Shown piece by piece: positions 9,756 through 10,899 of a DNA stretch of 30,191 bases. Source of the DNA: a virus; UHGV virus genome UHGV-0176705. The stretch is one strand, 5' to 3'. Below the pieces are notes generated by a model, which saw only the letters and a program-made list of their open reading frames with translations, had not been told where the DNA came from and searched no databases. Within the stretch, counting starts at the first letter, position 1; every line of letters begins with the position of its first letter. The position numbers and the translations under genes were made by a program.

Positions 9756-10583
9756 TTATTTAACCTGGATAAATGGTGTATTTGCACCGCTGGTCATGTA
9801 TTGCGGCAGTGTGCCGTTCCATTTATTGATGGCTTCCAACTCCATAACACCGGGGTTCTGGCGCAGAGCTTCACCGCGTAAACGAATAGCATCGGCTTCG
9901 GCCTGGGCTTTTGTGCGAATCGCATCAGCCTGTCCGGCAGCTTCCGCGCGCAACATGTTGGCTTCCGCTTCACGCTGTTTAACTTCCTGCTCGCGCTGCA
10001 GTGTTTTCTGGTTCGCCGTGACTTTGGCATTAATGCTGTCGATAACGGTTGACGGGTACTCCGGCTTACCCACATATGAGAGGCTCATTACCTGAATACC
10101 GATGGGTGTCATTTCCTCCTGGATGTCTTTAAGAGCTGCATCCAGTAGTTCAGACTTCCCGCCGTCGATAAATTTGTCGGTGGTCATTTTGCTGGCCAGT
10201 CTATTGAGTGCGTCGGCGATCTTTTGACGTAGGTCGGTGTCGGTAATGTCATCCACGCCTTTGCGGTAGGTCTGAAACACCGTGGTAACTTTGGATGGGT
10301 CAACTTTGTAGGCCACGCCGATGTGATAGCCGATGGTTGTACCGTCACTCATCTGGAAACTGAACGGTTCATCGTAGGTCTTCATTTGTTTGAAGGTCGG
10401 GAAGATGTAAACTTCAGTATTCCAGCCGGTCCAGTAGCGGCCAACGCCAACCACTTCACCGACGCCTTTGTCGTCGCCCAGTTTATTTACCTTGATGCCA
10501 ACATTACCTGGTTCAACGCGATCGCAACCGACAAGGCCAATGGTCGGAAGAACAATGGCTAAAGCAAAAATAACTTTTTTCAT
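9756..10583 (-). CDS. SPFH/band-7 (prohibitin/HflKC-like) domain lipoprotein
   Basis: Signal peptide with lipobox MKKVIFALAIVLPTIGLVGC; SPFH-like core followed by an Ala/Glu/Arg-rich coiled-coil tail (REQEVKQREAEANMLRAEAAGQADAIRTKAQAEADAIRLRGEA). Confidence 0.7.
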   Translation of the reverse strand: MKKVIFALAIVLPTIGLVGCDRVEPGNVGIKVNKLGDDKGVGEVVGVGRYWTGWNTEVYIFPTFKQMKTYDEPFSFQMSDGTTIGYHIGVAYKVDPSKVTTVFQTYRKGVDDITDTDLRQKIADALNRLASKMTTDKFIDGGKSELLDAALKDIQEEMTPIGIQVMSLSYVGKPEYPSTVIDSINAKVTANQKTLQREQEVKQREAEANMLRAEAAGQADAIRTKAQAEADAIRLRGEALRQNPGVMELEAINKWNGTLPQYMTSGANTPFIQVK

Positions 10584-10768
10584 CTTTTACCCTTAGTGAA
10601 AGAAAGACCCTTGTAAATGGCATAAATGCAGGGCGGGGTCAGAAACGCCAGTGCAAAGCCGGAAATGACTGCTACCGTATCCTTCATGGATATAAGGAAC
10701 GGGACGAGTAGTCCGTAAATGCATGCGATAATTGCCAGTAAAATTACTATTCTGAAATACAATCTCAT
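10580..10768 (-). CDS. Small two-TM membrane protein, translationally coupled to the SPFH lipoprotein gene (NfeD-like partner?)
   Basis: 62 aa, two hydrophobic helices (IVILLAIIACIYGLLVPFLI and VISGFALAFL); its stop overlaps the lipoprotein start by 4 nt. Confidence 0.4.
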   Translation of the reverse strand: MRLYFRIVILLAIIACIYGLLVPFLISMKDTVAVISGFALAFLTPPCIYAIYKGLSFTKGKR

Positions 10769-10791
10769 TGGTTTGTTGCATCCCGATATTT

Positions 10792-10899
10792 TTAACTGAC
10801 TGACAGCGCAATAAAGAGAATAATGATTTCTGTTAGTGTCAGTACTGTGGCAAGGATTAAAAGCAGTTTTACTCTGCTTAATTCACGATTGCTTTTCAT
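10792..10899 (-). CDS. Possible small hydrophobic peptide (35 aa)
   Basis: MKSNRELSRVKLLLILATVLTLTEIIILFIALSVS; ATG at 10899 with no clear Shine-Dalgarno; below the track cutoff. Confidence 0.2.
   Translation of the reverse strand: MKSNRELSRVKLLLILATVLTLTEIIILFIALSVS

Follow-up and report, generated by a model that had tools for sequence, protein, structure and literature searches.

The subject of this analysis is a pair of overlapping genes in a 30,191-nucleotide stretch of DNA from the virus genome UHGV-0176705; the whole stretch is called the window below. The window is Escherichia coli chromosome with a phiP27-like lambdoid prophage. The pair encodes an SPFH/Band-7 lipoprotein of 275 residues and a 62-residue protein with two transmembrane (TM) segments. 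An initial annotation, made from the letters of the DNA, had described these two genes and a short hydrophobic open reading frame (ORF) upstream of them as an envelope-modifying accessory locus. All three ORFs are present on the minus strand exactly where it had placed them, and the features of the region are as follows:

9756..10583, minus strand: SPFH/Band-7 lipoprotein gene, 275 residues (ORF with Band_7 and PHROG 200 matches; homologue of phiP27 L05 and N4 gp20)
10524..10583, minus strand: lipoprotein signal peptide, residues 1-20, with the lipobox LVGC, followed by Asp at +2 (read from the sequence)
10580..10768, minus strand: gene for the 62-residue two-TM partner (ORF with PHROG 1130 match)
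10580..10583, minus strand: ATGA stop/start overlap, the TGA of the partner gene lying over the ATG of the SPFH gene (from the sequence)
10792..10899, minus strand: 35-residue hydrophobic ORF, probably no gene, outside the conserved unit (ORF only)

The 275-residue protein is a true SPFH/Band-7 protein, as had been proposed. Its residues 22-208 matched the Pfam family Band_7 (PF01145) with E = 1.8e-30 and 106.8 bits, against a cut-off of 23.6, and the protein matched PHROG 200, "lipoprotein", with E = 9.1e-114. An AlphaFold2 model was built from 26 homologues and had a mean predicted local distance difference test (pLDDT) score of 77. It consisted of a beta-rich SPFH alpha/beta core, helices, and a single long helix at residues 178-242, which corresponds to the Ala/Glu/Arg-rich tail that the initial annotation had described as a coiled coil. 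Foldseek comparison gave a probability of 1.00 to HflC/K, prohibitin, erlin, stomatin, and flotillin. The top matches were HflC (7vhq_G, 6.9e-14), HflK (1.3e-13), prohibitin (8rrh), and erlin, the last two in the range from 1.2e-13 to 2e-13; the cytoplasm-facing QmcA was a weaker match (2.4e-8). Searches with the sequence only placed HflK or HflC first in both PDB and NCBIfam. Five PDB sequences matched in this way, with HflK the best (E = 6e-4) and QmcA not among them. Close relatives of the SPFH gene contained 170 synonymous and 24 non-synonymous variants, a distribution indicating that the gene is under strong purifying selection among them.

In the 62-residue protein there are two hydrophobic segments, with basic residues at each end, from which an orientation with both termini inside (N-in/C-in) is predicted. 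It matched PHROG 1130, "membrane protein", with E = 1.5e-23. The pair is shared with phiP27 and other prophages, and in the close viral relatives the 62-residue ORF and its ATGA overlap with the SPFH gene were intact in every case (80/80), so the coupling of the two genes noticed at the outset was confirmed. Overlaps of 4 nucleotides in P88, 20 in RCS47, 8 in N4, and 4 in BcepF1 were found in more distant pairs.

A profile of the partner was made from 25 sequences and used at E<1e-3 to search 80 genome loci, one genome per species, spanning Enterobacterales, Xanthomonadales, Burkholderiales, Pseudomonas, Leptospira, Bacteroidota, and others. A match was located directly upstream of the SPFH gene and on the same strand at 56 of the 80 loci, in several phyla, a count that is partly circular because some of the 25 profile seeds were drawn from these same loci. 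Control translations of the same loci, 1.2 million residues in all, contained two profile matches, and both were the displaced partner gene itself (L085 and L086, from Shigella flexneri and E. coli); there the partner lies approximately 1 kb upstream, with an insertion of approximately 0.8 kb between it and the SPFH gene. Because the controls yielded only displaced partners, we conclude that the profile is specific. Two other loci, L091 and L094, have a stop codon inside the partner reading frame. Together with the insertion in L085 and L086, these stops demonstrate that decayed copies of the pair exist.

Only three partner residues, Pro23, Ser27, and Gly37, are invariant across the family, and all three fall at the turn predicted to face the periplasm. 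Natural fusions between the partner and the SPFH protein were found in 17 of 150 family representatives (including P0161, P0167, P0169, P0179-P0182, P0200, and P0210) and also at loci L130 and L137. Sixteen of the 17 have the order two TM helices, basic linker, signal peptide with lipobox, and SPFH domain; the remaining one, P0168, has a partner-like stretch at its C-terminal end. The fusions retain the internal lipobox behind a third hydrophobic segment, which raises the question of internal processing of the lipoprotein signal.

The partner had at first been assigned to the NfeD type, and this assignment did not hold. The NfeD model (PF01957) did not match the 62-residue protein at E<=0.1 or any of 28 diverse partners at E<=1, and the two TM helices fill the 62 residues, leaving no space for an OB-fold; NfeD identity was therefore rejected. 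No Pfam family was found for the window protein or the 28 diverse partners, and wherever the partner was named, it was named "hypothetical". The partner is a distinct, unnamed family with no Pfam entry. Taken together, the sequence comparisons indicate that the 62-residue protein is a real, conserved, translationally coupled, and co-evolving partner of the SPFH protein, to which it is sometimes fused.

The location of the pair in the cell was examined through the N-terminus of the SPFH protein, which reads MKKVIFALAIVLPTIGLVGC-DR. A basic n-region and a hydrophobic core are followed there by the lipobox L-V-G-C, whose cysteine is Cys20, and the predicted mature protein starts with Cys-Asp. The lipobox pattern [LVI][ASTVI][GAS]C is present, in the form MKK-VIFALAIVLPTIG-LVGC, in agreement with the lipoprotein signal first described. 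Cys20 is almost invariant throughout the SPFH lipoprotein family, and among the 142 full-length representatives a strict pattern detected a lipobox-like motif in at least 107. Enterobacterial members have Asp (or Glu) at position +2. In E. coli, Asp at +2 predicts retention of a lipoprotein in the inner membrane. Some family members have a different anchor. In the sub-lineage of P0108, P0111, P0113, and P0117 (contigs of approximately 110 kb; the P0111 sequence occurs on 175 contigs), Tyr replaces the lipobox Cys (…IIGYDRVEPG…), so that lipidation is impossible and the protein would be held by an uncleaved signal-peptide anchor or be released instead. In approximately 20 distant representatives the N-terminal anchor is a TM helix that lacks a Cys, and with such an anchor they can only be inner-membrane proteins. 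An inner-membrane location is thus supported by the Asp at +2, by the Tyr and Cys-less anchor variants, and by the fusions to an inner-membrane two-TM protein. The order of the parts in the fusions places the SPFH domain in the periplasm. These features suggest that the SPFH protein is anchored in the inner membrane with a periplasmic SPFH domain, a topology like that of HflK/C.

The family is not confined to prophages of this kind. At E<=1e-3 it comprised 2,993 clusters (50% identity), and at E<=1e-30 it comprised 227. It was found by tblastn in 385 of 50,697 phage records, and many of the carrier phages are lytic, including N4-like, rV5-like, Felix O1-like, Bruynoghevirus, phiCbK-like, crAss-like, and Lak phages. 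Amino-acid identity to the window SPFH protein was 98.5% for phiP27 L05, 92.8% for P88, and 61.6% for N4. The pair is represented by gp11 and gp12 in the P2-like phage P88, by an unannotated 78-residue ORF and gp078 in the P1-like RCS47, by gp19 ("membrane protein") and gp20 ("lipoprotein") in the strictly lytic N4, and by gp001 and gp002 in BcepF1, where gp002 is annotated as "HflC/HflK family inner membrane lipoprotein". In 4MG, one small gene separates the partner from the SPFH gene. Comparison of the P27-like, P2-like, and P1-like versions showed 86-91% DNA identity in the mature SPFH core, and divergence in the partner, in the signal peptide, and over approximately the final 11 codons.

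In E. coli the gene was present in 725 of 5,426 complete genomes, at 437 chromosomal and 390 plasmid places. Nearly all of the matching plasmids were non-mobilizable (356/364), and among those listed most were 90-113 kb, which fits P1-like and SSU5-size phage-plasmids. The pair is located among ordinary chromosomal genes in Dyella and Leptospira, and elsewhere it adjoins phage genes. No recurrent third gene was found beside it, either in a set of 98 flanking proteins that came from 18 genera or at the inspected loci of Dyella, Leptospira, Sutterella, Bacteroidales, and Leptospirales. The broad spread in phages and plasmids, the chromosomal pairs, and the lack of a recurring third gene argue for an old bacterial two-gene unit that has been acquired repeatedly by phages.

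The 35-residue peptide had been listed as a possible further component of the locus. The ORF exists, but it is not part of the same unit, since 30 of the 80 close relatives lack or disrupt it: it was intact in 50, replaced by unrelated upstream sequence in 29, and altered from ATG to ATA in 1. Its substitutions, 9 synonymous and 17 non-synonymous, resemble those in the two off-frames of the same stretch (7/19 and 4/22); the SPFH gene has 170/24. No Shine-Dalgarno sequence was visible for it, it is unannotated in phiP27 and by PGAP, and it had no match in Pfam, PHROG, or Rfam. The possibility of a type I toxin or small RNA was also considered. There was no Rfam family, the RNA structure of the region was no better than that of shuffled sequence (z = -0.15), and the two weak antisense promoter-like sites present (9/12 matches, 10796-10827, plus strand) were not more frequent than in shuffled sequence. 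On the basis of its patchy distribution, its codon statistics, and the missing ribosome-binding site, the ORF was rejected as a third component, and we conclude that it is probably not a gene. An A+T-rich hairpin, GAAGAAT-ATA-ATTCTTC followed by CGTTTTTT, is located at 10912..10937 on the minus strand, right behind the stop codon of the upstream gene (10945..11583). It is a weak terminator-like element, and it was missed by our terminator scan because it contains too few G-C pairs.

The prophage setting of the pair is that given in the initial annotation, the leftward early region. Immunity genes lie on one side of it, and xis and int on the other. The interval 9300-11000 had 95.8% DNA identity to phage phiP27, where L05 is the SPFH gene and the small gene has no annotation, and 93.8% to a group of Stx2-converting phages. 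Both genes of the pair are annotated by PGAP in the closest genomes (99% identity). Upstream of the pair there are a terminator, a helix-turn-helix gene, and the following two features:

12828..13520: cI-like S24 repressor gene
12760..12732: sigma-70-like promoter site (score 11/12), just downstream of the cI-like repressor gene

Downstream are the DUF5406, DUF4222, xis-like, and int genes. No sigma-70-like promoter was found on the minus strand from 10768 to 11000 by a crude consensus scan, which weak promoters could escape, and a consensus scan found no G+C-rich terminator behind 9756. In 27 of the 80 relatives another gene and a strong ribosome-binding site directly precede the pair. The pair is embedded in the early operons of P27-like and P2-like (P88) phages, and in N4 it lies in the early/middle region. 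Because no promoter was found directly upstream and no G+C-rich terminator behind, and because the pair follows directly on another gene in those 27 relatives, the simplest reading is that it belongs to the early-left operon and is not an autonomous moron. The moron that was first proposed is thus retained in the sense of accessory prophage cargo; as an independent transcription unit it is not, given that no promoter or terminator of its own was detected, that it has an early-operon position, and that homologous pairs occur in strictly lytic phages. Between the SPFH stop codon and the DUF5406 ribosome-binding site there is a G+C-rich hairpin, GCCCGGC-AGGCC-GCCGGGC (9730..9748, minus strand). 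Without a T-run it does not qualify as a canonical terminator, and it may act in mRNA stability or processing.

Among known systems, HflK/HflC, the E. coli SPFH cage that modulates the quality-control protease FtsH (PDB 7vhp, 7vhq, 7wi3, and 9cz2), are the closest to the SPFH protein. They gave the best structural matches (Foldseek, 6.9e-14 to 1.3e-13), HflK was the best solved structure by sequence (E = 6e-4), and the order of domains is the same: membrane anchor, SPFH core, long helix, and C-terminal tail. The predicted periplasmic position of the SPFH domain and its inner-membrane anchor would be shared as well. The differences are that HflK and HflC are two paralogues, whereas a single SPFH gene is present in the window and at every related locus inspected; that they have an N-terminal TM helix in place of the lipid anchor predicted here; that they have no counterpart of the dedicated 62-residue two-TM partner; and that identity in the structural alignments is only 17-20%, with scores far under the cut-offs of the HflC and HflK models. 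Prohibitin and erlin form their SPFH cages on the non-cytoplasmic side of the membrane. They (PDB 8rrh, 9o9z, and 9vvj) were the next-best structural matches, at 1.2e-13 to 2e-13, but these complexes of eukaryotic organelles are TM-anchored hetero-oligomers and lack a small partner gene.

The SPFH-NfeD operons (QmcA-YbbJ, PDB 8z5g; YqiK-YqiJ; PH1511-PH1510) resemble the pair in having a small membrane-protein gene directly upstream and co-translated, with a partner that is probably built into the membrane patch beneath the cage. In contrast to them, the phage partner has no NfeD domain or OB-fold, the SPFH domain is predicted to be periplasmic rather than cytoplasmic, and QmcA was the weaker structural match (2.4e-8). 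A 2009 classification of prokaryotic SPFH proteins (PMC2636767) gives NfeD partners only for subfamilies 1, 2, and 5 and mentions neither lipoproteins nor phages. The direct homologues of the window pair are phiP27 L05, P88 gp11/gp12, N4 gp19/gp20, and BcepF1 gp001/gp002 (PHROG 1130 with PHROG 200). Those of P88, N4, and BcepF1 share its gene order and overlapping stop and start codons. In phiP27 and RCS47 the partner gene was left unannotated.

The explanation that we prefer, at a level of confidence somewhat short of even, is that the two genes, which a phiP27-like prophage carries in its leftward early operon as accessory cargo, form a self-contained inner-membrane module in which a periplasm-facing SPFH cage and its partner act together. 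Transcription of the early-left operon upon induction or infection would carry both genes. The SPFH protein would be exported, lipidated at Cys20, and held in the inner membrane through Asp at +2. On the periplasmic face it would oligomerize through its long C-terminal helix, and the resulting dome would cover a patch of the inner membrane; the fold and the conserved C-terminal helix and tail of the modeled protein suggest such a ring or cage. The partner, produced in equal amounts, would sit N-in/C-in within the enclosed patch, with its conserved Pro-x-Leu-Ile-Ser turn near the lipid-anchored N-terminus of the SPFH protein, and would constitute the transmembrane part of the cage. One may speculate that, while the phage develops, the cage serves to enclose or shield proteins of the inner membrane. 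Equally speculative, by analogy with HflK/C, are control of the access of FtsH to its membrane substrates and stabilization of the membrane until lysis. The homologous pairs in strictly lytic phages such as N4 make a role limited to lysogenic conversion or host virulence unlikely.

Several observations count against parts of this explanation. Some SPFH homologues have Glu, Asn, or Tyr at +2, so inner-membrane retention may fail for the family as a whole, and Arg at +3, as in the window protein, might weaken the Asp retention signal. The last 30 residues of the SPFH protein are conserved, yet they were modeled by AlphaFold2 with low confidence. The lytic-phage homologues of phiEa104 and PaP4 had no detectable partner. 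The NCBIfam scores for HflC (TIGR01932; 24.4 bits against a cut-off of 134.4) and HflK (TIGR01933; 23.4 against 159.4) were so far under the cut-offs that FtsH enters the explanation by analogy only. A bolder version, which we regard as unlikely, is that the pair is a compact, horizontally mobile analogue of HflK/C. In the periplasm, a cage assembled from the single lipid-anchored SPFH protein and the 60-residue two-TM "fence post" would trap FtsH or some other universal client in the inner membrane, and N4, P1, P2-like, lambdoid, Felix O1-like, and crAss-like phages would use it to reprogram membrane-protein quality control or the choice between lysis and lysogeny from the periplasm.

Other functions can be proposed for an envelope pair of this type. 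The initial annotation had named superinfection exclusion or protection against membrane stress, both of them guesses. In superinfection exclusion or anti-phage defense, the cage or the partner would block entry of a foreign genome at the inner membrane, for example by sequestering a DNA-translocation protein. The pair is an envelope accessory in many temperate elements, the N4 pair adjoins gp18, which is annotated as superinfection exclusion, and known exclusion proteins (Llp, Ltp, and SieA) are often small membrane proteins or lipoproteins. Against this, neither protein of the pair nor any of six neighbors matched the PADLOC-DB v2 defense models at E<=0.1, and no literature linking SPFH proteins to exclusion or defense was found. 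The mature protein is under strong purifying rather than diversifying selection, and its strong conservation in phages of unrelated hosts is more in keeping with a general cellular target than with one specific to phages. Because copies also occur among ordinary chromosomal genes (Dyella and Leptospira), and in view of the purifying selection and the unmatched defense models, a specific exclusion function is less likely, and we consider it doubtful. A role in the timing of lysis appears somewhat more doubtful still. The module would then stabilize the inner membrane or restrain holins or pinholins, giving later lysis and a larger burst. Such a role is consistent with the early-gene positions of the pair, with its occurrence in lytic phages whose latent periods are long or regulated, including large myoviruses and jumbo phages, and with the lysis inhibition shown by N4 (10.1101/2025.11.12.688109). 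However, the pair lies outside the lysis cassettes in the window, N4, and P88, gp19 and gp20 are unmentioned in that same N4 study, and chromosomal copies occur without phage context.

Action on an animal host is distinctly improbable. By analogy with PM0222 of Pasteurella multocida, a prophage HflK/C-like protein reported to be a TLR1/2-stimulating virulence factor (PMC9872710), the lipoprotein might be released, for example in vesicles, and stimulate TLR1/2 as a lysogenic-conversion factor. Stx2-converting phages do carry the pair, but the family is common in lytic phages and environmental bacteria, and no dedicated promoter was detected from which a lysogen could express the pair. The initial annotation had also raised the case of a qmcA/ybbJ-like chromosomal pair captured by assembly, and a displaced or mis-assembled SPFH-NfeD pair of the qmcA/ybbJ or yqiK/yqiJ type can be set aside almost entirely. 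The order of a small membrane-protein gene and then an SPFH gene is superficially that of NfeD-SPFH operons (PMC2636767). However, the 62-residue partner has no NfeD domain, the DNA is collinear with phiP27 (95.8% identity) and many prophages, the gene is present in only 725 of 5426 E. coli genomes, HflC/K are far better structural matches than QmcA, and the lipoprotein signal implies a topology opposite to that of QmcA and YqiK. Displacement of qmcA/ybbJ was rejected on the grounds of collinearity, topology, and weak similarity to QmcA.

Several other genes in the window were recorded. A three-gene insert at 5715..7579 (plus strand) is flanked by integrase genes at 4172..5443 and 7566..8774 (each on the minus strand) and is missing from the closest genome, CP141863. 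It encodes a 317-residue protein with a weak HATPase_c_2 match below the Pfam cut-off, a 144-residue protein with the STAS-like DUF4325, and a 189-residue protein without a family, and it could be defense or conflict cargo in an integration hotspot. At 177..3645 (plus strand), overlapping genes encode a histidine-kinase-like ATPase with HEF_HK (572 residues) and a protein with Response_reg_2 (588 residues), which PGAP names "ATP-binding protein" and "response regulator receiver domain"; we take these two Pfam families to be ones known from predicted biological-conflict systems. The prophage also contains an OmpC-like porin gene at 20253..21350 (minus strand; Porin_1, E = 1e-154; "ompC" in related genomes), which is followed by a DNA methylase gene at 22151..23230 (plus strand).

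The genes themselves are already in databases, as phiP27 L05, N4 gp19/gp20, and PHROGs 200 and 1130. No functional study of the pair, N4 gp19/gp20 included, was found in the literature, which contained annotation-level remarks only. A possible HflKC-like influence of the gene on lysogeny has been remarked upon (PMC10269572; PMC8540360), and its presence in phages has been called unexplained (PMC13239085, 2026). What is added here is the conserved, coupled pair, the partner signature outside described families, the HflK/C-like topology predicted for the SPFH protein, and the lack of specificity for lysogeny; the pairing is modestly new. SPFH cages, among them HflK/C, prohibitin, stomatin, and flotillin, are a current focus of structural work, and to our knowledge most bacterial SPFH members have no known function. 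The two-gene unit, with its partner signature and its natural fusions, is a small, clonable system with a tractable host and phage (N4). With it one can study the action of a minimal periplasmic SPFH cage and any interference by phages with quality control of the FtsH type, the pathway through which hfl mutants originally came to light.

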